Below, piece after piece: positions 13,937 to 56,457 of a stretch of 62,506 nucleotides of DNA (position 1 is the stretch's first letter; each line of letters opens with the position of its first letter). Position numbers and translations under genes: made by a program. The stretch spans positions 1 to 62,506 of the forward strand of contig JANQHV010000129.1 of the NCBI GenBank assembly GCA_028282505.1, written 5' to 3'. The DNA is from SAR324 cluster bacterium (lineage in GTDB: Bacteria > SAR324 > NAC60-12). The notes under the pieces are model-generated. The model saw only the letters and a list, made by a program, of their open reading frames with translations, was not told where the DNA came from and did no database searches.

Positions 13937-14299
13937 ATGAAAAAAATTATCCTCCTTTTTGCCTTGGCGGCTATGGGTATTGCCGCACTGTTGGCAATTA
14001 ACCCTGAATTTCACTCTGAGGTGGAAGGCTTGTGGAGTAACCAGGAAGATGCTATCGAAAATCTTCAGAAAACACAAGAAACGGCATTGGAAAAAATGGA
14101 ACAACTGAAAGAGGTGAGTGGCGAAGTCTTCGAAAAAGGAAAGGAGGCATTGGAAGAAATGGAAAAATTGCAAGACGTCAGCCGAGAAGTTCTTGAAAAA
14201 GGACAGGAGGCCGTTGATCAGTTAAAAGGGATGGCTGAAGAGACGATGGAAAAAGCCAAAGATGCGACATCCGACGTCGAGAAACGCCTTAACAATTAG
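13937..14299 (+). CDS. Secreted Glu/Lys-rich coiled-coil protein
   Basis: Signal peptide MKKIILLFALAAMGIAALLA. Internal ~20-aa repeat (EKMEQLKEVSGEVFEKGKEA / LEEMEKLQDVSREVLEKGQEA). Ends 17 nt before the next gene. Confidence 0.5.
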   Translation: MKKIILLFALAAMGIAALLAINPEFHSEVEGLWSNQEDAIENLQKTQETALEKMEQLKEVSGEVFEKGKEALEEMEKLQDVSREVLEKGQEAVDQLKGMAEETMEKAKDATSDVEKRLNN

Positions 14300-14315
14300 T
14301 TCTATTGGAGAATTT

Positions 14316-16466
14316 ATGACGGAACTGTCCTCCATTACCGCATTGATCATCGATGATGAACCACAGATTTGTTACTTTTTTGTGGAAATATTAAAAAGGC
14401 AGGGAATTCAATCTTTCACAGCAGAAAATGGTCAACAAGCTCTAGAATTACTAGAACAGCAGAAAATCGATTTTATCATTACAGATGTCAAAATGCCTGT
14501 AATGGATGGCATTGAACTCACTAAAAAAGTGCGTCAGGATTATGAAGAACTTCCTATTGTGTTGATCAGTGGATATAGCAATGAAGATACGGTCATTATG
14601 GCTCTTCGGGCGGGAGCAAACAATTTCTTAAAAAAACCAATAGAGGCTCATGAGTTTTATAAAGTGGTTCTACCGATTGTACACACCATCGAACAAAAAA
14701 AATCCCAAGCCTTTGATTATAGCGTTGTCCGTCAATTATCCGATGAATTCTGTTTAACAAATGATATCACCTTGATTCCAGGATTGGTTGATTATTTATT
14801 ACAACACCTCAAAACAAGCCCTTACTCTTCACGATTACATGGGCTAAAAATTGCTCTTTATGAAATGATTGTCAACGCCATCGAGCATGGTAATTTGGAA
14901 ATTACGCAAGAAGACCAGGAAGAGGCTCTCGAAAAAGAGTGTTTTGAGGAATTGGTTCAGGAACGCCTTCAAGATCCAGATTACCAACACCGCCAAGTTT
15001 ATGTGCAATATGAATACAGCCCGATACAATTGTCCTGTACAATTGTCGATGAGGGCAAAGGTTTCGATTGGCGCCAATTCCCTAATGCACTCTCCGAAGA
15101 AACATTATTTTCAAAGAGAGGCCGTGGCATCATGATGGCCCAGATGTATTGTGATGAAGTACGCTATAATGAAAAGGGAAACCAGGTGACACTGATTATC
15201 AGGAATGAAAATGCCTCCCATGCTATACCAGAGAATATGTCATCATCTCTCAATAGCTGCCAAGCACACATTTTGGTTGTTGAGGATAATCCTCTCAACT
15301 TCGAGCACATCAAAGATGTGCTGGAGAAGTTGGGATATTCCTTTGGAGGACTCCCCCATCCTAACGATTTATTTATACTCCTAGAACATAAAGAACAAAA
15401 GAATAATCAATTTGATTTGATTTTAATGGACATCCACATGCCAGAAATCAACGGAATCATGCTGTTGAAACAACTCAAAGCACACTCTGTTTTCCAGAAA
15501 ATTCCAGTTATCATGCTAACGGGAGAAACGAATCACCAAACATTGGCTGAATGCTTTGAGCATGGCGCAGAGGATTTCATCAATAAACCAGTCAGTCCAT
15601 TAGTTCTAAAATCCCGGATTCAATCAGTGTTGAACAGGCAGAAATACATTCACCAAATCCAAAAAGTCAGTAGTGAACTGGCCACTCAATATGAACTCTT
15701 ATCTAAGACACAAATTGCTCTAGAAAAAAAACATCAACAAATTCAGGAAGATGTTTATCTGGCCGCCAACGTTCAAAAGGCAACTCTGCCTCCTCCACCA
15801 AACCTCCCATTCTTGAAAACATCCATTATTTTTCAACCGCGCAGTATTGTTTCTGGAGATATTTATTTCATGTCAGAAGATGATACGGGCAGTATGAGGA
15901 TTTTTTTAGGAGATGCAACCGGTCATGGGATCTCAGCAGCACTTTTAAGTATGTTGGTTCGTATGGGGTTGGAGCAAATTAAACTGGAGGATTCGTCTGA
16001 TAAAATTCTGAAACAACTGAATACACAACTCGCATCTTGTATTCCCAAAGATGACTACATTACTGGCATTTATTTAAAAATTACTCCACAAGGTGTTCTA
16101 AAAATCAGCAGTGCTGGCAACACACCTGGGGTTCTCCTATCTACTGCTCAGCAAGACATCACTTTTTTAACAGATGGAGGGCAGGCGCTTGGCATGTTTC
16201 CCCAAGAACGGATTCCTTATACAGAAGAAATCCATCATCTCAAACCAGGCGATAAAGTGCTGCTCTATACAGATGGTATTCTGGAATGGACAAACAAAGC
16301 CCATCAAGCATTTGGTATCGAACGCTTAGAAAACTATCTCATCCAACATAAAGAACAAGAAATCAATATCCTTTTAACAGGTTTGTTGGAATATTCACAG
16401 GAGTTTGCCCAACGGAACCCGTGCCAAGATGACCTGACACTATTGGGTTTCCAATTCCTCGGATAG
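14316..16466 (+). CDS. Partner-switching regulator: REC, RsbW-like Ser kinase (HATPase_c_2), REC, PP2C/SpoIIE phosphatase (HsbR/RsbU-like)
   Basis: REC1 (LIIDDEP ... ITDVKMPVMDG ... KKP). Kinase boxes EMIVNAIEHGN, DEGKGFD, GRGI. REC2 (ILVVEDNP ... LMDIHMPEING ... NKP). PP2C motifs VSGDIYF, GDATGHGISAAL, LYTDGI, QDDLTLL. GGAG lies upstream of ATG 14316. Confidence 0.85.
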   Translation: MTELSSITALIIDDEPQICYFFVEILKRQGIQSFTAENGQQALELLEQQKIDFIITDVKMPVMDGIELTKKVRQDYEELPIVLISGYSNEDTVIMALRAGANNFLKKPIEAHEFYKVVLPIVHTIEQKKSQAFDYSVVRQLSDEFCLTNDITLIPGLVDYLLQHLKTSPYSSRLHGLKIALYEMIVNAIEHGNLEITQEDQEEALEKECFEELVQERLQDPDYQHRQVYVQYEYSPIQLSCTIVDEGKGFDWRQFPNALSEETLFSKRGRGIMMAQMYCDEVRYNEKGNQVTLIIRNENASHAIPENMSSSLNSCQAHILVVEDNPLNFEHIKDVLEKLGYSFGGLPHPNDLFILLEHKEQKNNQFDLILMDIHMPEINGIMLLKQLKAHSVFQKIPVIMLTGETNHQTLAECFEHGAEDFINKPVSPLVLKSRIQSVLNRQKYIHQIQKVSSELATQYELLSKTQIALEKKHQQIQEDVYLAANVQKATLPPPPNLPFLKTSIIFQPRSIVSGDIYFMSEDDTGSMRIFLGDATGHGISAALLSMLVRMGLEQIKLEDSSDKILKQLNTQLASCIPKDDYITGIYLKITPQGVLKISSAGNTPGVLLSTAQQDITFLTDGGQALGMFPQERIPYTEEIHHLKPGDKVLLYTDGILEWTNKAHQAFGIERLENYLIQHKEQEINILLTGLLEYSQEFAQRNPCQDDLTLLGFQFLG

Positions 16467-19105: not shown

Positions 19106-21451
19106 TTACTTGTGAAAATGAAACGAAGTATAAAGGTCCTCTGTCAGTTGATCAGGCGGTGTTAATTGAGGTTCCATCCCAAAAATCTGCCGACGGAGCT
19201 TAAAACGCGCCACTAATTGTTTCAGATTCTGAGCCTGCCCGGTGAGTTCCTCACTGGCCGAAGAGGCTTCTTCAGAGATTTGAGCATTTTGCTGAGTGAT
19301 CTGGTTGAGCTGGCTCAACCCATCATTGATTCCCAGGATGCCACGGGCCTGTTCATTACTGGCAGTCGCAATTTCACTAACCAAGTCTGTCACTTGGACA
19401 GAACCTTCGACAATCTTTTTCAAGGAGACCGCCGTTTCATCTGCGATTTCGGCACCTGCCTCCACTTTTTTAATAGACTCATTGATATTAGCTGCAGTTT
19501 CTCGGACAGCTTCCGCACTATTTTGTGCCAGATTACGAACTTCTTCCGCGACCACCGCAAAGCCTTTTCCATGAACACCGGCTCGTGCAGCTTCCACTGC
19601 AGCATTAATAGCCAATACATTGGTTTGAAACGCAATCACTTCAATGGTTTTGATGATTTTAGAAATATCTTTGGACGATTCATTGATCTCCTGCATGGAT
19701 TGAACCATGCGCTTCATGAGAGCGTTGCCGTCTTCTGCCTGCTGACGTGCGACACTGGCCAATTGATTGGCCTGAGTTGCGTTATCCGCATTAGAACGAG
19801 TTTGGGCTCCCATTTGCTCCATAGAAGCCGAAATTTCTTCCAGAGCAGACGCCTGGTTGGTTGCTCCATTCGAAATTGTCAGGCTGGCACTCGATAACTG
19901 TTCGGCACCACTGTTCAGCTGATTGGCAGAAGCAGCAACCTGATGCAGCACTTCATTCAAACTATCCATCATGGTTTGCTGAGCTTGTCCCAGCGTATCC
20001 TGTGTAGAGACCAAACTTGCTTCAACAGAAAGATTGCCTTCCGCAATTTCCTGCGCTAATCCTACTTTTTCTTTTAAGGATTGGAGCATTTGTTGGAGAG
20101 CTATGCCCAAAATATCTTGTCTAGAAGCTAAACTTACCTGAACATCGAGATTTCCTTTCGCAATTTCTTGAGCAAGTTCCGCTTTCATGTTCAACGCTTC
20201 CACCATTTTTTGCAGTGCATGGTAGATCCCTGTCGCTTCTCTCCCGGTGGATTTGAACTCGAGATCAGTATTGCCTTGAGCCACTTGATCGGCTACCTCT
20301 GCGATAAAGCTCGGTTCTCCTCCGATCTGTTTCATGAGTGACCGTGCGCCCAATAATCCCATCAAAATGACCAGAGTGATGATTACTCCAGAAAACATCA
20401 ACGTATATTTAATGTTTTCCTGATTTTTATTGGCAATTGCCGTGTACAGTTGCACGAGATCATTACTTAACTTTCGCAGGACATTGGATTGGATTAATAT
20501 ATTGCTGCGTGCCTGGCGGTATGGTTCTGATCCGACTTCTTCTTCCAAAAGGATTTGTACGGTTTTGGTAAGTTGAGCAAAAACCCCCTCAATTTCCACA
20601 ATCTTTGCCAGAGAAGCTTCGTCTTTAATGCCTGTTGAGGATCTTGCCTTTGACATAGCCAAGTCCACAGGATATTCTCCTCCAGATTTCATGGCAGTCA
20701 GTGTCTGAGAAAAAATAGTTTTTGCTGTATTGTACTCTCCCAGACTGGGATTCAATTCTGCTCGTCCCAAGGCAATATCTTTAGAAAAAGGAATATCAAA
20801 TCGTCGAATTCCCAACATGTCTCCCACTTCAAAAGGAGTTCCTTTGATGGCAGCATGACAGGTAGCACAGGCCTGTACAGTAGCAATATCAGCTGTATAA
20901 AATCGAACAAACAGTTCTCCATTGTTTTCAGCAGGCTCCATAAAGATTGCCTGTGGATCCTGGCTTAAAAATTTTCCTGCTTTTCTATCAGTATCATCCT
21001 GAAATCCTTTGTTGGGGTTGACAGGTGACTCTGCAAGAATATCTATCTGAAAATTGGCAAATTGCTCATTCACATTTCTGGTGAAAGTAGCAGGAAATGG
21101 AATCGCCGGACCTGTTTCCTGGTGGGGATTCATCGATACTTGAAGGCCAGCTTCTTGTGATGGACCTACGACCATACTGGTATAGGTGGCACGCATCTTG
21201 GTAATATACTCATCCATGCTGGCAATCTTCTTTTCAAGCAACTTGAATTCACTTTTAGCCATAGCATATCCCAGCGCAGACTTTCCCATAGCTTGTGATA
21301 ACATGCGCTGCCTTCCCAACACATCAATGATATCAGCATCATTTTCAGCCACCTCCATAATGCGCATCACATTGGCAAAGGCAACAAGCAATACAACAAA
21401 AATCAGGCCAAGCATGCCATAAACTTTGGACTGCAATGATAAGTTTTTCAT
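19106..21451 (-). CDS. Methyl-accepting chemotaxis protein with PilJ-like and heme-c (DUF3365-like, CxxCH) periplasmic sensor
   Basis: GRQRMLSQ (PilJ/NarX-like P-box), IPFPATF, NPNKGF, CATCH at aa 195-199, TM2, two tandem ~38-aa AQEIAxGNL modules, and the conserved MCP signalling domain ([20 protein letters not shown]). Confidence 0.9.
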   Translation of the reverse strand: MKNLSLQSKVYGMLGLIFVVLLVAFANVMRIMEVAENDADIIDVLGRQRMLSQAMGKSALGYAMAKSEFKLLEKKIASMDEYITKMRATYTSMVVGPSQEAGLQVSMNPHQETGPAIPFPATFTRNVNEQFANFQIDILAESPVNPNKGFQDDTDRKAGKFLSQDPQAIFMEPAENNGELFVRFYTADIATVQACATCHAAIKGTPFEVGDMLGIRRFDIPFSKDIALGRAELNPSLGEYNTAKTIFSQTLTAMKSGGEYPVDLAMSKARSSTGIKDEASLAKIVEIEGVFAQLTKTVQILLEEEVGSEPYRQARSNILIQSNVLRKLSNDLVQLYTAIANKNQENIKYTLMFSGVIITLVILMGLLGARSLMKQIGGEPSFIAEVADQVAQGNTDLEFKSTGREATGIYHALQKMVEALNMKAELAQEIAKGNLDVQVSLASRQDILGIALQQMLQSLKEKVGLAQEIAEGNLSVEASLVSTQDTLGQAQQTMMDSLNEVLHQVAASANQLNSGAEQLSSASLTISNGATNQASALEEISASMEQMGAQTRSNADNATQANQLASVARQQAEDGNALMKRMVQSMQEINESSKDISKIIKTIEVIAFQTNVLAINAAVEAARAGVHGKGFAVVAEEVRNLAQNSAEAVRETAANINESIKKVEAGAEIADETAVSLKKIVEGSVQVTDLVSEIATASNEQARGILGINDGLSQLNQITQQNAQISEEASSASEELTGQAQNLKQLVARFKLRRQIFGMEPQLTPPDQLTEDLYTSFHFHK

Positions 21452-21586: not shown

Positions 21587-23974
21587 CTAAAAATTCCCCA
21601 TATCCTCTTTATTAAAAGAAATCAATTCTTGGGGAGTTGATGCAGCTTTTGTGTTTTCCTCCAAGGCTGCTTCCATTTCGCCATGAGGCAGCTCCGCTGT
21701 AGGCTGATAGGGCAATGTAGCCTGGTGCATGCCAAAGACTTGTTGACGAAGTTTAAAGCGTGACACCAATTGCCTGAGATTCTGAGATTGCCCCTGGAGT
21801 TCCTCACTGGCTGAGGAAGCCTCCTCAGCAATCTGAGCGTTTTGCTGGGTGATCTGATTGAGTTGAGACAATCCATCATTGATCCCTTTGATGCCCTGAG
21901 CCTGCTCATTACTGGCTGTGGCGATTTCACTGACCAAATCAGTTACTTTCACAGATCCCTCCACAATTTCTTTTAGGGCGAGAGCGGTCTCATCTGCAAT
22001 TTTAGCACCTGCTTCTACTTTTTTAATGGACTCATTGATATTGGCTGCGGTTTCCTGGGCTGCTTCCGCACTGTTTTGAGCCAGATTACGAACTTCTTCA
22101 GCGACCACGGCAAAGCCTTTTCCATGCACACCAGCTCGTGCTGCTTCCACCGCAGCATTGATGGCCAGTACATTGGTTTGAAACGCAATCACTTCAATGG
22201 TTTTGATGATTTTGGAAATATTTTCTGAGGATTCATTGATCTCTTTCATGGATTCAACCATGCGTTGCATTTGGGCATTGCCATCTTCTGCCTGTTGACG
22301 TGCAGAAACTGCCAATTGATTGGCCTGGGTTGCGTTATCAGCATTAGAGCGGGTTTGAGCACCCATCTGCTCCATGGAAGAAGCAATTTCCTCCAGAGCA
22401 GAGGCCTGATTCGTGGCTCCATTGGCAATTGTCTGACTGGACCCAGACAATTGTTCCGCACCACTGGTCAATTGATTAGCAGAAGCTGCCACCTGATGCA
22501 GTACCTCATTCAAACTATTGATCATCGACTTTTGTGCTTCTCCCAAAGTGTCCTGTGAAGAAACCAGATTCGCTTCAAGAGAAAGATTCCCTGCCGCGAT
22601 TTCCTGAGCCAATTTCACTTTTTCTTTCAGAGAATGCAGCATCTCTTGCAGAGCAATGCCCAACGTATCATCTTTAGAAGCCAATTGTACCTGGACATCG
22701 AGATTTCCTTTGGCAATCTCCTGAGCAAGTTCTATTTTGAGGTTCAAAGCCTCAACCATCTTTTGCAGTGCATTGTAAATACCCGTTGTTGATGTTTTTG
22801 AGTCCATCTGCAGGTTTGTATTGCCCAAAGCCACTTGTTGCGCAATAGCTTCGATTTTGTCAGGCTCCCCTCCAATCTGTTTCATAATGGAACGCGTGAT
22901 CAAGATAGCGATTGTTCCACCGAGCACCAAGGCTAACAAAGTCCCAAAAATAATAATATAAATAGTCCTGGATGCTGTAGTCTCCGCGGCTTGTTCTCTT
23001 TCTACCATCAAGCCTCTTTCGATGCCAACGAATTCATTCAGCTTCACACGCAGTGCATCCATGCTTGCTTTGCCGATTCCTTTTTCAATCAAAGCAGTGA
23101 TATCATCAATGGTGGTCGTATTTTGATTCATTTCTCGGCGCAGTTCAATTTCAGGAATAGCCGCTTGCTGGAGCCAGTCACTCACCAGTCCTTCAATCTT
23201 TTCCAGCCGGGCCACCTGTGGCGGATTATCACTAACTTTTTGTTTCATTTCTACGATCAATTCCTCAAATCCTTTCTTCCCTTTATGGTAGGGCTCTAGA
23301 TATTCTTCTTGGCCAGTAATCAGAAAACCCCTTTCTCCGGTTTCCATATCAACGATATGAGCCAACAAGTTTTCTGCCTGTAACAATACTTGATATGTAT
23401 GTTCCACCCAACCTACAGCCTCAGCATCCAACGTTGTAGTCTTAGCTTTTCGTTCTTCTAACAATTTTAATTCTATATTAATAAATGTTTCAAAAACCCC
23501 TCGAATGGTATCCATGATGCGTTTACCAGTTCCTTTATCGAGTAAAGCAATGATATCGGTGATGGTGACAGTATTCTTATTCATTTCTCGACGCAACTCT
23601 ATTTCGGGAATAGCTGCTTTTTGGTTCCACTCATTGGACATTTCTTCAATTTTTTCCAATCGGGCCACCTGGGCCGGATTGTCACTGACCAGCTGCTTGG
23701 TTGCCGCCATCAATTCTGCAAATTCGGTAAGTCCATTGTTATACGGTTCTAGATACTCTTCTTGGCCAGCAATTAGAAATCCGCGCTCTCCAGTTTCTTT
23801 ATCCACCATCAACGCCATCAGCCGATTGCCATTAGCCATGACCTTCTGGGTGTGATTAACCCAGCTTGCTGTATCAATCAACGAGTTAATGCTGTTATAG
23901 ACGATGCCCCCAATGACAACCATCAATCCTAATACGATTGCGTTTCCTAAAATCATTTTTGTTCCAAATTTCAT
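21587..23974 (-). CDS. Methyl-accepting chemotaxis protein with tandem CHASE3 sensor domains
   Basis: Two copies of W(V)xHTxxV...ETGERGFLI(A/T)GQEEYLEPY...VSDNPxQVARLEKIE, then TM2, two AQEIAxGNL modules and the MCP signalling domain. ATG 23974 is preceded by GAGG. Confidence 0.9.
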   Translation of the reverse strand: MKFGTKMILGNAIVLGLMVVIGGIVYNSINSLIDTASWVNHTQKVMANGNRLMALMVDKETGERGFLIAGQEEYLEPYNNGLTEFAELMAATKQLVSDNPAQVARLEKIEEMSNEWNQKAAIPEIELRREMNKNTVTITDIIALLDKGTGKRIMDTIRGVFETFINIELKLLEERKAKTTTLDAEAVGWVEHTYQVLLQAENLLAHIVDMETGERGFLITGQEEYLEPYHKGKKGFEELIVEMKQKVSDNPPQVARLEKIEGLVSDWLQQAAIPEIELRREMNQNTTTIDDITALIEKGIGKASMDALRVKLNEFVGIERGLMVEREQAAETTASRTIYIIIFGTLLALVLGGTIAILITRSIMKQIGGEPDKIEAIAQQVALGNTNLQMDSKTSTTGIYNALQKMVEALNLKIELAQEIAKGNLDVQVQLASKDDTLGIALQEMLHSLKEKVKLAQEIAAGNLSLEANLVSSQDTLGEAQKSMINSLNEVLHQVAASANQLTSGAEQLSGSSQTIANGATNQASALEEIASSMEQMGAQTRSNADNATQANQLAVSARQQAEDGNAQMQRMVESMKEINESSENISKIIKTIEVIAFQTNVLAINAAVEAARAGVHGKGFAVVAEEVRNLAQNSAEAAQETAANINESIKKVEAGAKIADETALALKEIVEGSVKVTDLVSEIATASNEQAQGIKGINDGLSQLNQITQQNAQIAEEASSASEELQGQSQNLRQLVSRFKLRQQVFGMHQATLPYQPTAELPHGEMEAALEENTKAASTPQELISFNKEDMGNF

Positions 23975-24050
23975 TTCTACCTCTAACAAATAAATTCAAC
24001 AATAATGCAGTGTCTCTCGACTCAATGCAGTCATCAACATTTTATTTTTA

Positions 24051-24578
24051 TCAGGATGACGTTTGCCGCAACAAATCCAATTCTTTTTTCTGCAGCAATT
24101 CTTCAATATTGAGCAGAATGTAAACCTTATTTTTGGTCTTTCCCATTCCGGCAATAAATTGGTTTTCTGTCGAGTCATCTAATTCCGGAGAGGGGTCAAT
24201 ATCGGTCTTCGGAATACTAACTACTCCAGAAACGGTATCAACGATCAGTCCAGTAGTCACTCCCTGAATATTGACCACCACAAAACAAGAGAACTCATCG
24301 TATTCAATTTCTGGCAAAAGAAATCTTGCACGAAGATCAATGACTGGAATGATCTTGCCACGCAGGTTGATAACCCCTTTCGTATAAGCAGGCATGTGTG
24401 GAACTTCGGTAATTTCGCTGGTTGAATCGCGAATAACGACTTCCACCACAAAACGAATCTCAATTCCATAAAGGGATTTATGGAGAGGAAAGGTTAAAAA
24501 TTTTCCCTCCTGCTCATCTACTTCTTCCTCAACAAGAGAAGCATTTGAAGATGCATTTTCCACTACCTCTTCTGTCAT
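24051..24578 (-). CDS. cheW: Chemotaxis coupling protein CheW
   Basis: FLTFPL..SLYGIEI, VPHMPAYTKGVINLRGKIIPVIDLRARF, GLIVDTV. Confidence 0.9.
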   Translation of the reverse strand: MTEEVVENASSNASLVEEEVDEQEGKFLTFPLHKSLYGIEIRFVVEVVIRDSTSEITEVPHMPAYTKGVINLRGKIIPVIDLRARFLLPEIEYDEFSCFVVVNIQGVTTGLIVDTVSGVVSIPKTDIDPSPELDDSTENQFIAGMGKTKNKVYILLNIEELLQKKELDLLRQTSS

Positions 24579-24658
24579 AATCAACCCCTTTCTTTAATTT
24601 GAGTTTAGTGATAAGTTGAAATGATTTGTTTCCAAATGGTGTGCTTGCTTTTCCTGTT

Positions 24659-27199
24659 TCAATTAACCCTCTGCTCTCTATTTTGTTTTTCCTGCTTATA
24701 TGTAATCTTTTTTGCTAAACTTGCCGCATCCAGAATCAATCCAACTTTTCCACTGCCTAAAATGGTACACCCTGCCAAATGCTCCACATGGGTCATGGTT
24801 TCTGGCACACTTTTCACGACAACCTGCTGTTGACCAATCACTTCGTCTACCAAGAGACAAAATCGACGATTGGCTTGGTCGATCACTAAAACCATTCCTT
24901 CCGACAACCCATTGATATGGGATTGTAGCTGATATACCTTATCAAGACGCATGATCGGCAACAATTTTTCACGAATACGCAACATTTCTTTACCATCCAT
25001 AGTTTCTGTGATCTTTTCTGGTTCGGGTTGCAGGGTTTCCTGAATAGTGGTCGTGGGCAACACATAAAACCCCCGGCCCACCTTAACCAGCAATCCATCA
25101 ATGATGCTCAGTGTCAGAGGTATCCGCAATGTAAATGTACTGCCCTTTCCCATTGTGGAACGAACATCAACACTCCCTCGTAGTTTTTCAATGTTCTTTT
25201 TGACAACATCCATGCCAACACCACGGCCAGAAAAATCAGTAACCACTTGTGCTGTAGAAAATCCGGGTTCCAGAATCAGTTTCCAGACTTCCTCATCGGC
25301 AGGAGAAGCATCTTCGGAAATCAAGCCCCGTTCAATCGCTTTGTTGAGAATAACTTCTCGATTCATTCCTTTGCCATCATCCTGGATGATGATCCAGACT
25401 TCATTGCCAACATGTTGGGCTTCTAGTACAATTTTTCCTCCAGGAGGCTTTCCCGCACTCTGACGCTCTTCAGGAGTTTCCAAGCCATGATCCACTGCAT
25501 TGCGAATGATGTGCAGCAAAGGATCTGCAATCTGCTCTACTAATGTTTTGTCCACTTCACTTTTTTCACCAACCAGCTCCAGTTCTACCTGCTTCCCCAA
25601 TTTTTTTGAAGTGTCGTGTACCACCCGAACCATCTTACGAAACACCGAAGAAACAGGAACCATCCTCATTGACATGGCAATTTCCTGAAGCTCCCGCATG
25701 TTCCTATGAAGCTGACCGGATACTTTTTTCAAACTCTTCAATTCAGTCATCTTCATTTTCAAGGCAGGGTGCTGGGAAACCATGGTCTCTGAGATAACCA
25801 ACTCCCCTACTAGGTTGATCAATTGGTCCAATTTATCAAGGCTCACCCGGATGTCCTGTGTTTTTGGAGCAATGGCGGTTGATGCCGATTTTCTTCCTGT
25901 CTTTTTCTTCTCACTCTGTTTTTGCAGGGCTTGTTCGACATCAGAGGGTGAGGCTTTTCCCATCTGAACCAGGATATCTCCAAGGGGACTTTGCTGCTGT
26001 TGCACAGCCTCCTCGATGTCTCCAGATGTGACAGACCCCATTTCTATCAGGATATCACCCAGCTTTGTCTTTTCCGGATCCGAAGTCAATGTTGTCAATC
26101 GCCGCAAAGCTTGCTCAAAACGTTCAAGATTGAGTGATTTTTGATTAGAAAGGGCTACGACCCCTTCCCGGAGGGTATCAACTACTTCTAAAATACTCTG
26201 GATATTTGAAGCATCTAGTGGAATCTCCTCTGCCTGCATTCCTTCCAAAACTGCCTCAGCCTTGTGACTCAAATTTTCCATTGGACCTACAGCAAGGAAG
26301 CCTGAATTACCTTTGATGCTGTGGAAATTACGAAAGGCGGAATCCAGATAATCTTTGGTATCCATCTCTCCTCCCAGTTTATCCAACACCAAAAAAATGT
26401 CTTCGATTTTTTCCAACTGCTCTAGAGTGTCTGTGATAAATTGCTTCAACCGCTCTGAAGCATTGAGGATTTCTACCATCTCTCCAGAATCATTTGCTGA
26501 GGATGTGGTTTTATCAGAAGAAGCAGTTTTATCGGGCAGCGGAAACAAATCTTCCGGGGTCTGAGGTTCTGACCCTACACACTCAGTATAGTGCCGTTCT
26601 AATTCATGAACCAGAATTCCCATTTCCTGATAGAAAATCCCTTCTGCAAATGTATCCTTCGAATACTTGATCAAATTGCGCAGCAGAGCAGCACTTCGAG
26701 ACAACACCTCTGACAGTGGTATAGATCCCACTTCCTGTTCTAATGAAGAAGTAGAGAGCTCGGACTCTAGTTCTTCTGTTTGTGCCAGTTCGTCCAGGCA
26801 GTCTTCCAGTTGCCTAATAAGTTCATCTGCATCTTCTTCAAATCCCTCTTCGTGAAACTCTTCTTCTACTTGATTGAGCATTTCACTCAACAAATCACAA
26901 CTCTGAATCAATACTTCGGAATACTTGGACTCCCATCTAGTTGCATCACTGCGAAAAACCTGTAAGAGATTTTCAGCGCTATGGGTGACTTTTTGGATGG
27001 TGGTGAAATTCAAAAATCCTGCTCCCCCTTTCAAACTATGAAAAGGGCGAAACAACAAATCCATGGTTTCTTTGATTTCTTCTATATCAGACACTTCTCC
27101 CAAGTGGATCAAAGTTGGTTCCACTGACTCCAGGGTTTCCATGCTTTCTGCAACAAAATCCAGAATCACCTGCTGTTGCTCTTCACCAATTGGTTCCAT
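24659..27199 (-). CDS. cheA: Chemotaxis histidine kinase CheA with two Hpt domains and no recognisable P2
   Basis: Hpt1 FHSLKGGAGFL, Hpt2 FHSIKGNSGFL, tandem LGDIL motif (aa 379-428), P3 IRVSLDKLDQLINLVGELVI, P4 HIIRNAVDHG / DDGKGM / GRGVGMD, P5 CheW-like. Confidence 0.95.
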   Translation of the reverse strand: MEPIGEEQQQVILDFVAESMETLESVEPTLIHLGEVSDIEEIKETMDLLFRPFHSLKGGAGFLNFTTIQKVTHSAENLLQVFRSDATRWESKYSEVLIQSCDLLSEMLNQVEEEFHEEGFEEDADELIRQLEDCLDELAQTEELESELSTSSLEQEVGSIPLSEVLSRSAALLRNLIKYSKDTFAEGIFYQEMGILVHELERHYTECVGSEPQTPEDLFPLPDKTASSDKTTSSANDSGEMVEILNASERLKQFITDTLEQLEKIEDIFLVLDKLGGEMDTKDYLDSAFRNFHSIKGNSGFLAVGPMENLSHKAEAVLEGMQAEEIPLDASNIQSILEVVDTLREGVVALSNQKSLNLERFEQALRRLTTLTSDPEKTKLGDILIEMGSVTSGDIEEAVQQQQSPLGDILVQMGKASPSDVEQALQKQSEKKKTGRKSASTAIAPKTQDIRVSLDKLDQLINLVGELVISETMVSQHPALKMKMTELKSLKKVSGQLHRNMRELQEIAMSMRMVPVSSVFRKMVRVVHDTSKKLGKQVELELVGEKSEVDKTLVEQIADPLLHIIRNAVDHGLETPEERQSAGKPPGGKIVLEAQHVGNEVWIIIQDDGKGMNREVILNKAIERGLISEDASPADEEVWKLILEPGFSTAQVVTDFSGRGVGMDVVKKNIEKLRGSVDVRSTMGKGSTFTLRIPLTLSIIDGLLVKVGRGFYVLPTTTIQETLQPEPEKITETMDGKEMLRIREKLLPIMRLDKVYQLQSHINGLSEGMVLVIDQANRRFCLLVDEVIGQQQVVVKSVPETMTHVEHLAGCTILGSGKVGLILDAASLAKKITYKQEKQNREQRVN

Positions 27200-27217: not shown

Positions 27218-27772
27218 CTATGTTCCTTGCTTTTTTTTATAATCAGCTACTTTTTTTGATAAAGAGCGAAGACTTTCTTCTCTGCTTTTTCCTGTATATC
27301 GATTCATTAATTGTTCTACCTTCTCTTGAAGCCTCTCTGCTAATTCTTCTAAGGTTATTAAATGCAAATCAGCCACACTTGTTAGAAAATAACTGATCAT
27401 TACTGTCAGAATAATCCCAACCTGTTCTGCTATTTCCTGGCTCAAATAAGATTCTGTTAGCTGCTGTTCTCGCATGAGATCCTGAATTTCTCCACAAACA
27501 AAGCGGATGATAGGAGGACCTTTGTTTTCCTTAAGAAATCGATCAATTTCTTCCAGGCGAAAGCAAATCCTTTCCAAAAGCCGCTGATATTTGATTTCTT
27601 CTTTAAAAGAATGAAATTCCTGCCATTTCCTGAGTTTCACCCAATGTTCTTCCAGGTTTTGTAATTGATAGTTCAACTCATGAGGAAGACGCTCTCCAAA
27701 CGATTTTTTTTCTAATTTTCCAAAAGCATAAGCATCTTTAGAAAAAAACATGTGTTCCGTGAATTTGCTCAT
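27218..27772 (-). CDS. Hypothetical helical protein, first gene of chemosensory cluster 1
   Basis: ORF ends 18 nt before cheA on the same strand. ATG 27772 is preceded by AGAGG. No motif recognised. The ORF-track start (27829) is a TTG. Confidence 0.5.
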   Translation of the reverse strand: MSKFTEHMFFSKDAYAFGKLEKKSFGERLPHELNYQLQNLEEHWVKLRKWQEFHSFKEEIKYQRLLERICFRLEEIDRFLKENKGPPIIRFVCGEIQDLMREQQLTESYLSQEIAEQVGIILTVMISYFLTSVADLHLITLEELAERLQEKVEQLMNRYTGKSREESLRSLSKKVADYKKKQGT

Positions 27773-27935
27773 CTCTCTGCCTCTTTCATCTCTCACCTTA
27801 TTATACAACTCAATCCTACTAAACCCCAAAATTCTAGATTTACTCTAATTCACACTGCTTATCTTACCAGACCAAACAAAAATTACTCCAAGATAATCAA
27901 TGGGCATGAGCATCTTTTCATCTATTTGATTGCAA

Positions 27936-28610: not shown

Positions 28611-28731
28611 AGGAGAGGGCGGGTCACGGTCGCAACTATACTTAAGCGAAAGGATTGCTGATTATCTAATTTTCTGGTATCTTTTTAGGAATAAAAACCT
28701 TCACTGTTAATCCAGTGTTTTGGAAAACACG

Positions 28732-31533
28732 ATGGCTCAAAACACTTTATCCAAAACAGTTTTTTTGTTCTTTGGAATTCTGGTATACGCTACTCCTCTT
28801 CAGGCAAACTACCAGAATGTTTTGGTGGTTAATTCCTATCATGAAGGAATGCCCTGGAACGACAGTTTGATTGCAAGTATCAAGCAAACGTTCAAAGATC
28901 AAAAAGAACCTGTCAATCTGTATATTGAGTATCTGGATAGCAAGCGCATTCATGGTACGATATTCGACTATGAGACTTTGCAAGTTTATGGAATCAGCCC
29001 AAATAAACTTTCAACTGATAGTCGGCTGATCAATCAGTCGGAAACGTTTTTTCAACGTCACCAATCCCTGATTATTGCCTGTGGTATCATTTTTACAGGA
29101 TATGTGATTATACTGATTATTTTACTCTCAAATGTGAAACGGCGCAAAAACGCTGAAAGCACACTACGCTTGCACCAAGAACAATTAGGGGCGTTAGTAG
29201 AACAAAAAACCATTGAGTTAAAGAACAGTGAAGAACGCTATCGTCTATTATACAATGATACACCAGCAATGCTTCATTCTATTGATAAAGACGGTAACCT
29301 CATCAGTGTTAGTGATTATTGGCTGGAAACAATGGGATATGACCGTTCAGAAGTGATTGGCTCCAGTGTATTGACTTACCTGACAAAAGCTTGCCAGCAA
29401 CAAGTAAAAGAAGAGGCCATTCCGCGCTTGGTACAAGAGGGAAAGGTACAAAATTTTGCATACCAATTTGTGAAAAAAAGCGGAGAAATCATTGATATTG
29501 AATGGTCGGCGATTGCCCAACTTGACGCAAACGGAACATTTCGTCATTCCGTGGCTGTCTCATTTGATGTTACCAATCGTAAACAAGCCGAAAAAGCACT
29601 TCAGGAAAGCGTTGGGAAATTACAGGAAAGCGAAGAACGGCACCGCATGTTACTACAAAATGCAGGTATGGGAATTGGTTATTATACACCTCAAGGAGAG
29701 GCAGTCCTGTTTAATGAGCGGGCAATACAAAACCTGGAGGACATTTTCGGCCAAAACAACTATAAAGGCAAATCCGTTTATGAACTATTTGGCCAGGAAT
29801 TGGGGTCTTTCATCATGGAAAGGATCAAAACAACAATCAACAGTACAACACCTCAATACTTTGAAGACGAGTTTAACTTTCTAAACAGAAAAGTTTGGTT
29901 CTATTCTGTATTTAGTAAGTTGATCAATGAAACTGGAAAAGTGCTTGGTGTGCAAATCATATCTGATGATATAACACAACGTAAGCAGATGGAGGAGGAG
30001 TTGCGCATTGCCAAAGAACAGGCTGAGATTGCCAATCAAGCGAAAAGTGTGTATTTAGCCAATATGAGCCATGAAATCCGTACCCCGTTGAACTCCATTG
30101 TTGGTTTTGCTCAGATTTTATCAAATCAAGCACAAAAGCTCCCAGTATCCGATGATTTTAAGGCTTACCTACAACTCATACAAACCAGTGGTAATGATTT
30201 ATCAGAGCTGATTAATAATATACTGGATTTATCCAAAATTGAGGCAGGAAAAATTGATATTCAAAAAGAAACACTCAATCTCAGGCTTTTGATTCAGAGT
30301 ATTTTTCAAATCAACAAAGCTGAGGCCGCCAAACATGATATCTCATTACATTATGAATTTTCTTCACAATTACCAGAATTTGTGATTTCAGACCGCACCA
30401 AAATCAATCAGATTTTGATGAATCTTCTCAGCAATGCGATTAAATTCACTGCAGTGGCACAGCAAGCAAACCACACTGGTGAATCCACCACTCTTCCTGA
30501 AAATAAAAAGATTATACTCCGGGTCACACAAGAAAAGTTCCAGAGGGAATCCTGGCTTGTTTTTGAAGTAGAAGATGCGGGTATTGGTATTTCAAAGGAA
30601 GACCAGAAAACCATTTTTGAGCCTTTCCAACAGGCTGATAGAAACATAAACCGAAGGGTTAGAGGAAGTGGATTGGGGTTGGCCATCGTGAAAAGCATGG
30701 TCGACTTGCTGGGCGGAAAAATAAACCTGAAGAGTCATAAAGAAATGGACCAGTCTTCAGGGGGATCTTGTTTTACTGTGCATATCCCCTTGATGTCAGC
30801 TGAAGACAAAGAAACAGGACCGGGGCATTTGAATTGGGAAGATAATCACTTTTCAGAAAAAAACCGCATCCTGGTTGTGGAAGACAATCCAACCAATCAG
30901 AAGATGATTCAGGCATTATTTCGAGAATTGGGCTTGGAAATCGAGCTTGCTGCCAGTGGAGAGGAAGGCGTTGAAAAAACATTGGCTGCCAGTGAGAAAA
31001 ACCAACCGTTTGATTTGATCCTGATGGATATTCACATGCCTGAAGTGGATGGTATCGCGGCTAGTCAAAAAATTCAGTTATCCCCAGCATGTCACAAAAT
31101 TCCTATCATTGCTCTATCCGCTGAAGTATTTGACTTTCAACAACAAACGGCTCTGTCGGCAGGAATTTCTGACTATCTGCTCAAGCCGATTCAAGTCAAT
31201 GAGCTGGTAGCGATCTTAGTCAAATATTTAAAGCAGGATCAAACGGCTTCGACAGTTGAACAGATCCCCCGAAAGCCATTGCCCGATGATCTGAAGGTGC
31301 AACTACTCGATGAGTTCAAGACACTCGCTGAAATCCCTCATTTCTATAATAGACGTATTCGTATCCAAATTGATAAAATGACTGAACTGTGCAGGGCTCC
31401 GGACGGTAACCTCTATGAGTCACCTTATCTGGCAATTATGAGAAACATTCAGTACATGTCTGATTCTGGAAATTCTGAAGAGATATCAACATTAATCAAT
31501 GAGGCTCTCAATGTCCAATATTCTCGTTCTTGA
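28732..31533 (+). CDS. Hybrid sensor histidine kinase (short periplasmic region, 2 PAS, HisKA, HATPase, REC, C-terminal tail)
   Basis: VLVVNSYHEGMPWND...YIEYLDSKR (ABC_sub_bind-like N-terminus), TM, PAS regions, [33 protein letters not shown] ([13 protein letters not shown]). The tail is homologous to the tail of the 133-2502 protein. Confidence 0.9.
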   Translation: MAQNTLSKTVFLFFGILVYATPLQANYQNVLVVNSYHEGMPWNDSLIASIKQTFKDQKEPVNLYIEYLDSKRIHGTIFDYETLQVYGISPNKLSTDSRLINQSETFFQRHQSLIIACGIIFTGYVIILIILLSNVKRRKNAESTLRLHQEQLGALVEQKTIELKNSEERYRLLYNDTPAMLHSIDKDGNLISVSDYWLETMGYDRSEVIGSSVLTYLTKACQQQVKEEAIPRLVQEGKVQNFAYQFVKKSGEIIDIEWSAIAQLDANGTFRHSVAVSFDVTNRKQAEKALQESVGKLQESEERHRMLLQNAGMGIGYYTPQGEAVLFNERAIQNLEDIFGQNNYKGKSVYELFGQELGSFIMERIKTTINSTTPQYFEDEFNFLNRKVWFYSVFSKLINETGKVLGVQIISDDITQRKQMEEELRIAKEQAEIANQAKSVYLANMSHEIRTPLNSIVGFAQILSNQAQKLPVSDDFKAYLQLIQTSGNDLSELINNILDLSKIEAGKIDIQKETLNLRLLIQSIFQINKAEAAKHDISLHYEFSSQLPEFVISDRTKINQILMNLLSNAIKFTAVAQQANHTGESTTLPENKKIILRVTQEKFQRESWLVFEVEDAGIGISKEDQKTIFEPFQQADRNINRRVRGSGLGLAIVKSMVDLLGGKINLKSHKEMDQSSGGSCFTVHIPLMSAEDKETGPGHLNWEDNHFSEKNRILVVEDNPTNQKMIQALFRELGLEIELAASGEEGVEKTLAASEKNQPFDLILMDIHMPEVDGIAASQKIQLSPACHKIPIIALSAEVFDFQQQTALSAGISDYLLKPIQVNELVAILVKYLKQDQTASTVEQIPRKPLPDDLKVQLLDEFKTLAEIPHFYNRRIRIQIDKMTELCRAPDGNLYESPYLAIMRNIQYMSDSGNSEEISTLINEALNVQYSRS

Positions 31534-34219: not shown

Positions 34220-36568
34220 ATGATACAAATCCATGAAGATCAACAAGAACAAATCCTGGAATTTGTTTCCGAAATTACAGACATGCTGGATACCGTGGAA
34301 CCCACGTTGATTAACCTGGAGTCAACGGATGATCCTACAGAAATCGCCAGTACAGTGAATGATGTTTTTCGTTTGTTTCACAGTATGAAAGGTGGTGCTG
34401 GTTTTTTACAATTGAAGAATATTGAAAAGGTAACGCATTCGGCAGAAAACTTATTGCAGCATTTCCGTAAAGATCCAAACACATGGCATTCCGATTACCT
34501 GGAAGTATTAATACAGAGTGGTGATTTGATTCGTCAGATGCTGAACCAGGCAAAAGAAGATTTCAATGATAACTATTTTGAGGAGGAAGCTATGAGTCTA
34601 CTTGATCTGTTAGCAGAAAATCTAGACAGCTTGAACAAAGACCCTGATGCCGTTTCTGCAAAGCAAGAACCGACAAATCCACTTGTTCCAAATGCTGCAG
34701 AAACTTTCTCACCGCTTGATCTTCCAGGGCAGACTACTTCTCCTCACTTCCCTGATGAGGTTGAAATGAAAGAAAATATGTCTCAAACTTCTGTCAATAC
34801 CAAGGAGGTCTTTGTAAACAGTACAGAAGAGCATCTGGAAACAGCGGAAGGTGCTATTTTAGTATTGGAGCGGCTTGGAGAAGAAGTAGACCATCAGGAG
34901 TATCTTCATTCTATTCTTCGCAGTTTTCATACCATTAAAGGAAATGCGGGTTTTCTAGATCTCCCTTTGATTGAACGTTTGAGTCATAACGCAGAGACAG
35001 TTCTGGAAGAGGTAAAAGTTGGTAAACTGACCCTGGATGGGCAAAGTAGACAACTGATCCTGGAAGTGATTGATGTCTTGCGTGAAGGGACGGCTGCTCT
35101 TGCCCAGGGACAGCAATGTGATACAAAACGATTTGAGGAAATGGAAAACAAATTGGCGGCCTTTTCTTCCAATCCAACGCTGCTGGGAAATATTATGGTT
35201 GAGATGGGCACTGTCAAGCCGGGTGATGTGGAAGAGGCTCTCCAACATCAACGCTCTTCTTTGGGAAATATCCTGGTCAAGATGGGAAAAGCTGAACCCA
35301 AGGATGTGGAAAAAGCCCTAGTGACACAAAATATCCGGCAGAAAAAAACTCCTGTGGCCAAACCTTCAGTCATCAAAGCACAAGACATCCGTGTCAGTCT
35401 GGACAAATTGGATAAATTGATCGATTTAGTTGGAGAATTGGTCATTTCTGAAACCATGATTGCTCACCACCCTGCCCTGGAAAGTAACGAACTGGAAGAT
35501 TTACGAAATATGTCTCGCCAGTTGGCCCGCTATATTCGCGACCTTCAGGAAACAGCCATGTCCATGCGGATGGTACCTGTTTCTTCCGTTTTTCAGAAGA
35601 TGGTCCGGGTGGTCCACGACACTTCCAAAAAACTGGAAAAGAAAGTGAATCTGAAGATGGTCGGAGAAAAAACAGAAGTTGACAAAACTTTGGTAGAACA
35701 AGTGGCTGATCCATTGTTACATCTTATCCGCAATGCAGTCGATCATGGTATAGAAATGCCAGGTGACCGAGAGGCCTTAGGTAAACCAGCAACAGGCACC
35801 ATTCGACTGGAAGCACAGCATGTTGGCAATGAAGTCTGGATCATCATCGATGATGATGGAAAAGGGCTGAGTCGGGATATCATCTTGAATAAGGCCAAAG
35901 AAAAAGGATTGGTGACTGACAATGGAGAATCACTGACGGATGGAGAAGTTTGGAAACTGCTCTTAGAACCTGGTTTTTCGACTAAAGAAAAGGTGACAGA
36001 CCTCTCTGGACGTGGTGTGGGCATGGATGTGGTCAAACAGAATATCGAAAAACTGCGTGGCAGTATCAGCATCGAATCTCAGTTAGGAGCAGGCTCTATT
36101 TTTACCCTGAAAATTCCACTTACCTTGACCATCATTGATGGTTTACTCATTCGTGTGGCGAATACTTCTTATGCCTTGCCAACCAATACCATTAAAGAAA
36201 CACTCCGTCCTCAGGATTCCCAAATTACTAAAACGATGAATGGCTCCGAAATGCTGCGTCTTCGTGAAAAGATGCTTCCGATTTTACGACTTCATGACCT
36301 GTATCAGCTTGACACAGACATTACTCGGCTTTCGAAAGGAATGATTCTGGTGATTGAGCAGGCTGATAAAATGTTTTGTGTTTTTGTAGATTCGATCTTG
36401 GGGCAGCAACAAATCGTAGTGAAGGGACTGCCAGAATCCATGTCAAGGATACCTCATCTCTCTGGCTGCACTATTTTAGGGGATGGCCAGGTTGGTTTGA
36501 TCCTGGATGCAACCAGCTTATCGAAGATAACTCTCCATCTCAGAGCGAAGATGTCTAAAAACTTTTGA
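34220..36568 (+). CDS. cheA: Chemotaxis histidine kinase CheA, second paralogue (two Hpt domains, no recognisable P2)
   Basis: Hpt1 FHSMKGGAGFL, Hpt2 FHTIKGNAGFL, tandem LGNI(M/L)V motif (35180-35329). The P3-P5 region is highly similar to the 24659-27199 protein. Confidence 0.95.
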   Translation: MIQIHEDQQEQILEFVSEITDMLDTVEPTLINLESTDDPTEIASTVNDVFRLFHSMKGGAGFLQLKNIEKVTHSAENLLQHFRKDPNTWHSDYLEVLIQSGDLIRQMLNQAKEDFNDNYFEEEAMSLLDLLAENLDSLNKDPDAVSAKQEPTNPLVPNAAETFSPLDLPGQTTSPHFPDEVEMKENMSQTSVNTKEVFVNSTEEHLETAEGAILVLERLGEEVDHQEYLHSILRSFHTIKGNAGFLDLPLIERLSHNAETVLEEVKVGKLTLDGQSRQLILEVIDVLREGTAALAQGQQCDTKRFEEMENKLAAFSSNPTLLGNIMVEMGTVKPGDVEEALQHQRSSLGNILVKMGKAEPKDVEKALVTQNIRQKKTPVAKPSVIKAQDIRVSLDKLDKLIDLVGELVISETMIAHHPALESNELEDLRNMSRQLARYIRDLQETAMSMRMVPVSSVFQKMVRVVHDTSKKLEKKVNLKMVGEKTEVDKTLVEQVADPLLHLIRNAVDHGIEMPGDREALGKPATGTIRLEAQHVGNEVWIIIDDDGKGLSRDIILNKAKEKGLVTDNGESLTDGEVWKLLLEPGFSTKEKVTDLSGRGVGMDVVKQNIEKLRGSISIESQLGAGSIFTLKIPLTLTIIDGLLIRVANTSYALPTNTIKETLRPQDSQITKTMNGSEMLRLREKMLPILRLHDLYQLDTDITRLSKGMILVIEQADKMFCVFVDSILGQQQIVVKGLPESMSRIPHLSGCTILGDGQVGLILDATSLSKITLHLRAKMSKNF

Positions 36569-46430: not shown

Positions 46431-46436
46431 AAGCAG

Positions 46437-50717: not shown

Positions 50718-50793
50718 GCCCATGTAGCTCAGCTGGTAGAGCAGCTCATTCGTAATGAGCAGGTCGCAGGTTCAAGTCCCGTCGTGGGCTCCA
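50718..50793 (+). tRNA. tRNA-Thr (anticodon CGT), CCA encoded
   Basis: GCCCATG acceptor stem pairs with CGTGGGC. D-arm AGCTCAGCTGGTAGAGC, anticodon stem-loop GCTCA-TTCGTAA-TGAGC, T-arm GCAGGTTCAAGTCCCGT. Closely resembles canonical bacterial tRNA-Thr(CGU). Confidence 0.9.
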
Positions 50794-55257: not shown

Positions 55258-55262
55258 GACTC

Positions 55263-55718: not shown

Positions 55719-55719
55719 A

Positions 55720-56376: not shown

Positions 56377-56457
56377 ACGTACCTTTCATCACCAATTAAT
56401 TGTTCGAAGTAGCGATCATCTTCCAAGGAAGAAATACAATAATCAGGCCAAATTGAT

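Follow-up and report, generated by a model that had tools for sequence, protein, structure and literature searches.

An MshEN_N domain, probably a c-di-GMP receptor, lies between the last Hpt domain and P3 of two CheA kinases from a SAR324 cluster bacterium

We analyzed a 62,506-nucleotide stretch of DNA from a SAR324 cluster bacterium (assembly GCA_028282505.1, contig JANQHV010000129.1; hereafter the 62.5-kb window), which encodes two CheA kinases, CheA1 and CheA2. An earlier note, made from the letters alone, had pointed to a tandem motif at aa 379-428 of CheA1, between its second Hpt domain and its dimerisation domain, and had suggested that cyclic di-GMP (c-di-GMP) could act on the kinase through it. 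The open reading frame (ORF) and the Pfam matches placed this motif exactly there (25916-26065). CheA1 carries an Hpt domain with its His as well as P3, P4 and P5, and is encoded together with CheW, a methyl-accepting chemotaxis protein (MCP), CheR and CheB, as is characteristic of a CheA (Pfam, NCBIfam). Its features were delimited as follows, with AlphaFold2 (AF2) models used in addition to the profile matches.

24659..27199, reverse strand: CheA1 gene, 846 aa, Hpt - Hpt - MshEN_N - P3 - P4 - P5, without P2 (ORF, Pfam, NCBIfam CheA models, AF2)
26750..27184, reverse strand: Hpt1 (P1), aa 6-150 (Pfam Hpt 12-113; AF2 helices 6-150)
26084..26488, reverse strand: Hpt2, a second P1-like domain, aa 238-372 (second Pfam Hpt stretch; AF2 helices 238-372)
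25916..26065, reverse strand: MshEN_N module, aa 379-428 (NF053729, PDB sequence matches, AF2 superposition)
25994..26065, reverse strand: motif I of the module, aa 379-402, KLGDILIEMGSVTSGDIEEAVQQQ (sequence)
25988..25993, reverse strand: spacer of the module, Q403-S404, 2 residues (sequence)
25916..25987, reverse strand: motif II of the module, aa 405-428, PLGDILVQMGKASPSDVEQALQKQ (sequence)
25853..25915, reverse strand: Lys/Ser/Thr/Ala-rich tether to P3, aa 429-449 (AF2 helix 418-434; 24% identity to CheA2)
25667..25852, reverse strand: P3 dimerisation domain, aa 450-511 (Pfam H-kinase_dim 448-511; AF2 helices 454-510)
24695..25666, reverse strand: P4 (HATPase_c) and P5 (CheW-like), aa 512-835 (Pfam, AF2)

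The phospho-acceptor of Hpt1 is His54 in FRPFHSLKGGAG, and both H54 and K57 were invariant across 35 homologues. The equivalent His293 of Hpt2, in FRNFHSIKGNSG, was nearly invariant and K296 invariant in these homologues. Pfam placed the HATPase_c domain at 559-696 and the CheW-like domain at 702-830, and returned no match to P2 (PF07194) in CheA1. P2 has an alpha/beta fold. The full-length AF2 model of CheA1, with a mean predicted local distance difference test score (pLDDT) of 83.5, was entirely helical to residue 434 and showed its first beta-strand at residue 513, within P4, indicating that no P2 fold is present anywhere in the model. The second Hpt domain of CheA1 fills the region where the CheY-binding P2 lies in the listed Aeromonas example. 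Between the two Hpt domains, aa 151-237 (26489-26749, reverse strand) were modelled as a helical hairpin with helices at 162-179 and 188-209 (pLDDT about 70-88), and the residues that follow it, 219-243, as disordered and Ser/Thr/Asp-rich. This inter-Hpt region received no family assignment and was 16% identical to that of CheA2.

We then compared the module with curated profiles and known structures. NF053729, the NCBIfam model 'cyclic di-GMP-binding domain-containing protein, MshE-related' (53 positions; curated cutoff, 38 bits), matched the whole CheA1 protein with 45.5 bits (E 4.8e-12), all 53 model positions being aligned to aa 379-428, and matched the isolated fragment, again over positions 1-53 of 53, with 67-68 bits (E 9e-19). 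The secondary profile matches of the fragment were to the MshEN-type regions of NfrB and EpsG. A phmmer search of the PDB with a 73-aa fragment retrieved PilF of Thermus thermophilus (6F8L, E 1.4e-13; 6EJF, E 2e-6) and MshE (5HTL, E 0.0076), and the sole irregularity in each alignment was a 3-residue deletion in the inter-motif spacer. A loose regular expression for the tandem motif matched 6 of 20000 composition-preserving shuffles of CheA1. As a negative control, we used 35 unrelated CheA loci, which were contig matches to CheA1 without the module; the expression matched none of them in the three forward frames per locus, i.e., on the strand of the CheA match.

The earlier note had proposed a search of aa 370-440 with the T2SSE_N profile of Pfam (PF05157), and this route failed: the profile had no match in CheA1 with E values up to 10 allowed, nor, with a limit of 0.01, in any of 33 module-bearing homologues, and it was NF053729 that matched above its cutoff instead. 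We take PF05157 to model the full MshEN domain with its N and C subdomains, about 145 aa in MshE; therefore, the miss is likely due to the presence of the N subdomain only, and we treated it as uninformative. In the AF2 model, helix 4 of the module is followed by a disordered tether and not by a C subdomain. A weak match to Pfam DUF4388 in CheA1 and its homologues (E 0.002-0.1) lay under the cutoff of that family.

The AF2 model of aa 368-440, calculated with 33 homologues in the alignment, had a mean pLDDT of 79 (85-91 in the core) and consisted of four helices. The top seven Foldseek matches of this model in the PDB were all c-di-GMP-bound forms of MshE (5HTL) or PilF GSPII-B (8PDK, 9GLG, 8PFA, 9GL5, 8PE0), and a predicted model was thereby superposed on experimental structures with a root-mean-square deviation of 1.3-1.4 Å over 52-55 columns at a probability of 1.00. 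The non-binding N-terminal domain of XpsE and Xanthomonas PilB-N/PilZ complexes followed at ranks 8-13 with poorer scores. When representative sequences were searched exhaustively with the fragment, 883 matches were found at E up to 0.001, and the top of the list held mainly many-repeat MshEN_N-like proteins, so that the search is hardly informative about CheA. Both halves of the CheA1 motif fit the 24-residue spacing, as the earlier note had stated. On these profile matches and on the predicted structure, we conclude that aa 379-428 of CheA1 is a genuine MshEN_N domain; its identity and predicted fold are established by this analysis, as are the absence of P2 and the conservation and synteny described below.

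The window encodes a second copy of the module, which the earlier note did not mention, on the opposite strand.

34220..36568, forward strand: CheA2 gene, 782 aa, Hpt-Hpt-module-P3-P4-P5, 52% identical to CheA1; also listed as homologue P0010
35180..35329, forward strand: MshEN_N module of CheA2, aa 321-370, LLGNIMVEMGTVKPGDVEEALQHQ-RS-SLGNILVKMGKAEPKDVEKALVTQ, with the same 2-residue spacer as CheA1 (NF053729)

CheA2 scored 33.2 bits against NF053729 as a whole protein, under the cutoff of 38, and 38.6 bits as a fragment, at the cutoff. The two kinases were 62% identical in the module, 66% in P3, 73% in P4 and 43-50% in the two Hpt domains, whereas the identity was 24% in the tether after the module (CheA1 429-449) and 16% in the inter-Hpt region. 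The module therefore evolves as a folded domain and not as a linker, and aa 321-370 of CheA2 are a genuine MshEN_N domain as well. The CheA2 gene is preceded by a gene for a REC-GerE regulator and followed by genes for an MCP, CheW and a second MCP; in P0005, a CheA2 orthologue, a single-domain REC protein is encoded before the kinase.

The survey of CheA proteins for the module, another suggestion of the earlier note, showed the tandem motif directly upstream of P3 in 53 of the best 120 homologues retrieved, a sample that is biased as the candidates were picked by words shared with the query. The spacer lengths of the 55 tandem pairs, three of which come from one protein (P0080), were 1 (11 pairs), 2 (16), 3 (1), 5 (2), 6 (9), 7 (12), 8 (2), 9 (1) and 11 (1). 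All 33 aligned module-bearing homologues matched NF053729, and none of them matched Pfam P2 or T2SSE_N. Where source names were available, the module-bearing proteins came from, among others, the SAR324 cluster, Acidobacteria and Pseudomonadota. Among named relatives, those closest to CheA1 and CheA2 are proteins from metagenome-assembled genomes of the SAR324 cluster (about 54% identity). Within the clade of double-Hpt kinases, the module was present in P0003-P0006, P0008-P0011, P0015 and P0020. It was absent from P0007, P0013, P0014, P0016-P0019 and others, which have an unconserved Pro/Ser/Ala/Glu-rich linker of similar length in its place and also lack P2. P0002, the closest homologue of CheA1 (55% identical; encoded outside the window), carries Gly3 to Glu and Gln24 to Lys changes in motif II and a Gly10 to Asp change in motif I, and its module scored 25 bits, below the NF053729 cutoff. 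Judged by these substitutions, P0002 appears to be a naturally occurring member of the clade that has lost binding.

MshEN_N was first defined in the Vibrio cholerae ATPase MshE as a four-helix, two-motif receptor of c-di-GMP (PMC5013675). The earlier note knew of no described CheA with such a module; however, the same study names 'chemotaxis protein kinase CheA' in its main text among the partner domains of MshEN (Wang 2016, Nat Commun 7:12481, PMC5013675) and catalogued the CheA-MshEN_N architecture in 2016 in its Supplementary Table 4. In addition, residues 261-390 of an Aeromonas veronii CheA (EKB11881) bound c-di-GMP with a dissociation constant (Kd) of 2.6 uM (PMC5013675, Supplementary Table 6). 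Isolated VcMshEN_N (residues 1-62 according to the main text and 1-65 according to Supplementary Table 6) bound it with a Kd of 0.35 uM (PMC5013675), indicating that MshEN_C is not needed for binding. Sensing of c-di-GMP by a CheA with an embedded MshEN_N is therefore not a new idea, having been catalogued in 2016 with one fragment measured.

CheA1 fits the placement of the catalogued architecture, with the module between the phosphotransfer region and H-kinase_dim and with HATPase_c and CheW-like domains following. The A. veronii kinase likewise has MshEN_N directly upstream of P3 and keeps the Gly and Gln contact residues. Its motif I starts with Met and its motif II with Lys, and CheA1 has Lys in motif I, so that neither protein has Arg there. 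The Aeromonas protein differs in that it keeps P2, has one Hpt domain and has a spacer of about 9 residues, whereas CheA1 and CheA2, known from sequence and of SAR324-like lineage, have two Hpt domains, no P2 and a spacer of 2. V. cholerae MshE (5HTL) shares with the CheA1 module the two 24-residue motifs, the four-helix bundle and the conserved hydrophobic, Gly and Gln contacts. In CheA1, the N subdomain only is embedded in a kinase, whereas MshE also has an MshEN_C subdomain and an ATPase domain of the secretion/pilus type; both of its motifs start with Arg, and 5 residues separate them. The GSPII domains of T. thermophilus PilF (6F8L, 6EJF, 8PDK, 9GLG) gave the best sequence match, to residues 299-359, and c-di-GMP-bound GSPII-B structures were the top fold matches; PilF differs from CheA1 in being an ATPase of type IV pili, in which three GSPII domains stand in tandem and each has its own C subdomain, and in its longer spacer.

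Other c-di-GMP systems also modulate a chemosensory pathway or a histidine kinase through the second messenger: YcgR acts at the flagellar motor, Azospirillum Tlp1 is a chemoreceptor with a PilZ domain, and the hybrid kinase cited below is presumably ShkA. Further examples are another PilZ-domain chemoreceptor, Cbp1 of Azorhizobium (PMC6454048), PlzC as another c-di-GMP route into chemosensory pathways (PMC12799141), and a hybrid histidine kinase activated by c-di-GMP (PMC6969517). Reviews add MapZ-CheR, in which the input is at the chemosensory methyltransferase, and CckA, whose CA domain is the site of c-di-GMP binding. These systems act via a receptor, a methyltransferase, the motor or catalytic/REC domains, whereas the CheA1 module is built into the tether between P1 and P3.

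We next assessed whether the residues that hold the ligand in MshE are kept. In each MshE motif, Arg1 provides a stacking contact to guanine, and the bases pack against hydrophobic clusters made up of Leu2, Leu17 and Leu21. The Hoogsteen edge of guanine is bonded by two backbone amides, those of Gly3 and of the residue after it, and ribose and phosphate are bonded by Gln24 (Wang 2016, PMC5013675). The mutations G11L and G40I abolish binding, a change of any conserved hydrophobic residue lowers the affinity more than 10-fold, and changes of Arg9, Asp12 and Gln32 cost no more than about 5-fold (PMC5013675). The equivalents of MshE R9/L10/G11/L25/L29/Q32 in motif I of CheA1 are K379/L380/G381/I395/V399/Q402, and those of R38/L39/G40/L54/L58/Q61 in motif II are P405/L406/G407/V421/L425/Q428. 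Both motifs therefore keep Leu2, Gly3, the hydrophobic residues 17 and 21, and Gln24, the sole exception being Arg1. In our alignment (A1), G381 was invariant and Q402 nearly so, and G407, L410 and Q428 were invariant. No disruptive change of the XpsE type was present at the Gly, Leu or Gln contact positions of CheA1.

Conservation among 40 distinct CheA-borne modules pointed in the same direction. The search pattern permitted ten residues at position 24, yet Gln was found there in 38/40 of these modules in motif I and in 40/40 in motif II; Gly10 of motif I was found in 39/40. Positions 5 (Ile), 12 (Val/Leu/Ile) and 20 (Ala), which the pattern left unconstrained, were strongly conserved. As the only role described for Gln24 is in bonding the ligand (PMC5013675), its conservation is the best argument from sequence for retained binding. 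The proven A. veronii binder served as a benchmark: the NF053729 scores were 82 bits for VcMshE, 67-68 for CheA1, 45 for the A. veronii CheA, 38.6 for CheA2 and 25 for P0002. With an MshEN_N-type module and its contact residues in place, the earlier prediction of a possible c-di-GMP input into CheA1 appears reasonable, and the CheA1 module probably binds c-di-GMP.

Several observations weigh against this reading. Arg1 is absent from both motifs, being K379 and P405 in CheA1 and L and S in CheA2. The earlier note had raised this replacement as a caveat, correctly, but it carries little weight: K and P both fall inside the relaxed census motif, [RKPN] (PMC5013675), the proven binder starts with Met, mutation of Arg9 costs about fivefold at most, and Arg was found at position 1 in 16/40 (motif I) and 14/40 (motif II) of the CheA-borne modules. 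Position 11 is polar in CheA1 (S389, K415), which lies outside the relaxed motif, whereas it is a hydrophobic residue of the bundle core in MshE; I19R, at this motif position, is among the changes listed for the non-binder XpsE (PMC5013675). The adjacent position 12 (V390, A416) is acceptable as bundle core, position 11 is commonly A, T, S or K among CheA-borne modules, and AF2 predicts the bundle in CheA1 nonetheless. The module is a 50-residue unit with a 2-residue spacer, compared with a 53-residue unit with a spacer of 5 in MshE, as the earlier note had correctly described; neither of the two binders compared, MshE with 5 and the A. veronii CheA with about 9, has a spacer as short, and no binder with a spacer of 2 was found. 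This caveat, too, is real and weighs little, as spacers range from 1 to 11 among CheA-borne modules, with about 9 in the proven binder, and their length does not strictly define MshEN_N; the 2-residue spacer is common to the nine closest module-bearing homologues (P0003-P0006, P0008-P0011; P0010 being CheA2). The Foldseek E-values of the top seven matches were weak (0.05-0.2), because the domain is very small.

Further points against it concern the cellular context. GGDEF, EAL, HD-GYP and PilZ domains were absent from the scanned ORFs of the window, a scan from which ORF 59370-60341 and most ORFs below 150 aa were left out, and from the precomputed Pfam lists of the called genes at four orthologous loci. 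Rfam showed no c-di-GMP riboswitch in the window, and literature searches on SAR324 and c-di-GMP yielded nothing useful; that the source organism uses c-di-GMP signalling is assumed. With regard to an allosteric step, no study of an effect of c-di-GMP on any CheA was found in the open-access literature searched, so this absence is not proof. Taking the evidence together, we regard it as probable that the modules of CheA1 and CheA2 are MshEN_N c-di-GMP receptors inserted in the tether between the last Hpt domain and P3, of the known CheA-MshEN_N architecture.

An unlikely alternative is that the module has retained the fold of MshEN_N and lost its binding of c-di-GMP, so that it would give structure to the tether or offer another protein a surface for docking. 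Such losses have precedents in the N-terminal domain of XpsE, which lost binding, and in Xanthomonas PilB, a reported non-binder that docks a PilZ protein, and both types were among the weaker fold matches (ranks 8-13). The lack of Arg1 in either motif, the polar S389 and K415 at the core position of XpsE I19R, a spacer 3 residues shorter than in MshE and the scanned window ORFs without c-di-GMP enzymes would also suit it, and the Gly to Glu change in motif II of P0002, with its sub-cutoff score, indicates that degeneration occurs in the clade. However, CheA1 has none of the XpsE-type disruptive changes at contact positions, and CheA-borne modules keep Gln24 almost without exception, although only ligand bonding is described for it (PMC5013675). 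CheA1 also outscores on the curated model a proven binder that itself has no Arg in motif I, and the best fold matches are ligand-bound forms.

It is very improbable that the module binds another cyclic dinucleotide, e.g., 3'3'-cyclic GMP-AMP (cGAMP). VcMshEN_N does bind cGAMP weakly, with a Kd of 330 uM (PMC5013675), and the altered position 1 and the shorter spacer of CheA1 could in principle shift specificity; however, this binding is roughly 700-fold weaker than that of c-di-GMP, binding of c-di-AMP was not detectable (PMC5013675), guanine recognition by the backbone amides of Gly3 and the next residue is kept in both CheA1 motifs, and nothing in the window points to cGAMP signalling. We hold it to be just as improbable that the module is a functional substitute for P2 that docks the cognate response regulator. 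The earlier note had described the module as a replacement of P2, and this held insofar as P2 is absent from CheA1 and the module stands before P3, at the place of P2. However, the A. veronii CheA has both P2 and MshEN_N, and the module-less relatives in the clade lack P2 and have an unconserved linker only, indicating that the tether before P3 can take up the module as an optional insertion, independently of P2. In the models, moreover, the module is predicted to be a four-helix bundle and not the alpha/beta P2 fold, and we rejected the P2-substitute reading on these grounds. That the region is a plain flexible linker with a fortuitous resemblance to the motif, which the earlier note had named as a possible refutation, has a negligible chance and is refuted: although this region is a disordered tether in many CheA proteins and of low complexity in relatives, the profile E-values (1e-12 to 1e-19), the confidently predicted helical bundle, the 62% identity of the paralogues compared with 16-24% in true linkers and the shuffle control (6/20000) all contradict it.

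If the module is a c-di-GMP receptor, the full-length model suggests where it could act. The module helices span 375-386, 392-400, 406-412 and 418-434; the first is separated by a 2-residue break from the last helix of Hpt2 (358-372), and the fourth runs on to aa 434, from where a disordered stretch, residues 435-449 with pLDDT below 50, makes the connection to P3 (454-510). Each CheA protomer would bind one c-di-GMP in the manner of MshE, with an affinity of about micromolar order. The hydrophobic clusters L380/V421/L425 and L406/I395/V399 would sandwich both guanines, and hydrogen bonds to them would come from the backbone amides at G381/D382 and G407/D408 and from Q402 and Q428. MshE can accommodate the ligand only if its first helix breaks (PMC5013675). 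Since hardly any break separates module helix 1 from the last helix of Hpt2, while a floppy tether of about 15 residues leads to P3, binding would be expected to shift the orientation or mobility of Hpt2 with its His293. Such a shift may change the access of His293 to the ATP site of P4 or to REC partners, and a direct action on the P3/P4 core seems unlikely. The result would be a tuned autophosphorylation, or a tuned phosphotransfer to CheB and to the REC-RsbW-REC-PP2C protein described below, in a direction that cannot be inferred. We place far less confidence in this specific allosteric route than in binding itself.

CheA1 is part of a chemosensory cluster, in which the following genes were identified with Pfam unless stated otherwise.

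27218..27829, reverse strand: conserved 203-aa protein without a Pfam or NCBIfam family, 18 bp upstream of CheA1
24051-24584, reverse strand: CheW of the CheA1 cluster
21587-23989, reverse strand: MCP with two CHASE3 domains
19106-21451, reverse strand: PilJ-like MCP
18269-19090, reverse strand: CheR
16833-17888, reverse strand: CheB
16440-16787, reverse strand: STAS protein, 115 aa, last gene of the CheA1 operon
14262..16466, forward strand: REC - HATPase_c_2 (RsbW-like) - REC - SpoIIE/PP2C protein, convergent with the cluster and abutting the STAS gene

No stand-alone CheY was found among the scanned ORFs of at least 90 aa in and downstream of the CheA1 cluster. The REC-RsbW-REC-PP2C protein is a candidate for the phospho-acceptor and output of the pathway. 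At the orthologous locus of P0003 (GCA_028280735.1; L036), the gene order is unknown-CheA-CheR-CheB-STAS, followed by the same convergent REC-RsbW-REC-PP2C gene; identity with the proteins of the window is 46% for the counterpart of the 203-aa protein and 44% for the PP2C protein. In L036 and in L037, the counterpart of the 203-aa protein lies at the same position and overlaps the CheA start, and this protein may be a conserved component of the CheA1 chemosensory system. The arrangement of STAS and REC-RsbW-REC-PP2C genes, which is conserved in L036, suggests that the CheA1 pathway has a partner-switching module, and not a flagellar motor, as its output.

The rest of the window is unusually dense in hybrid histidine kinases (46-2502, 28720-33139, 43770-50594), which include SBP_bac_3-kinase-REC, PAS-kinase-REC, kinase with two REC, and sCache-HAMP-PAS-kinase-REC layouts as well as a 1385-aa protein with two histidine kinase cores, a cyclic nucleotide (cNMP)-binding domain, three REC domains and an Hpt domain. 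A tRNA gene at 50718-50790 (forward strand) was the sole Rfam match in the window at the gathering threshold. The stretch 53959-61760 encodes a macro-domain protein (53959-54474), an ankyrin-repeat protein (54670-55257), a bactofilin (55263-55718), FGE-sulfatase-domain proteins (56458-57981, 60333-61760) and a Kdo transferase (58174-59466), none of which is apparently related to the MshEN_N finding.

Particular to this locus are the 2-residue spacer, which is shared across the clade, the double-Hpt layout without P2, the fact that two paralogous CheAs both carry the module, and a partner-switching neighbourhood that is conserved. The locus does not alter existing knowledge and helps in the choice of an experimental system. 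It adds that P2-less CheAs of several lineages commonly carry the module (53 of the 120 retrieved), with spacers down to 1-2 residues; that the model sets the module rigidly beside the last Hpt domain and tethers it loosely to P3, which suggests the site of an allosteric effect; and that, in the CheA1 lineage, the module occurs within a chemosensory cluster with a conserved partner-switching neighbourhood. We tentatively propose, as a possibility that goes well beyond binding and is more doubtful than it, that two P2-less, double-Hpt CheAs each read c-di-GMP via a short-spacer module fused to Hpt2, and that at least CheA1 feeds a STAS/RsbW-like/PP2C output and not the flagellar motor. If this is true, the level of a second messenger would be relayed directly, via a chemosensory array, to the kind of partner-switching output by which a sigma factor is usually controlled.

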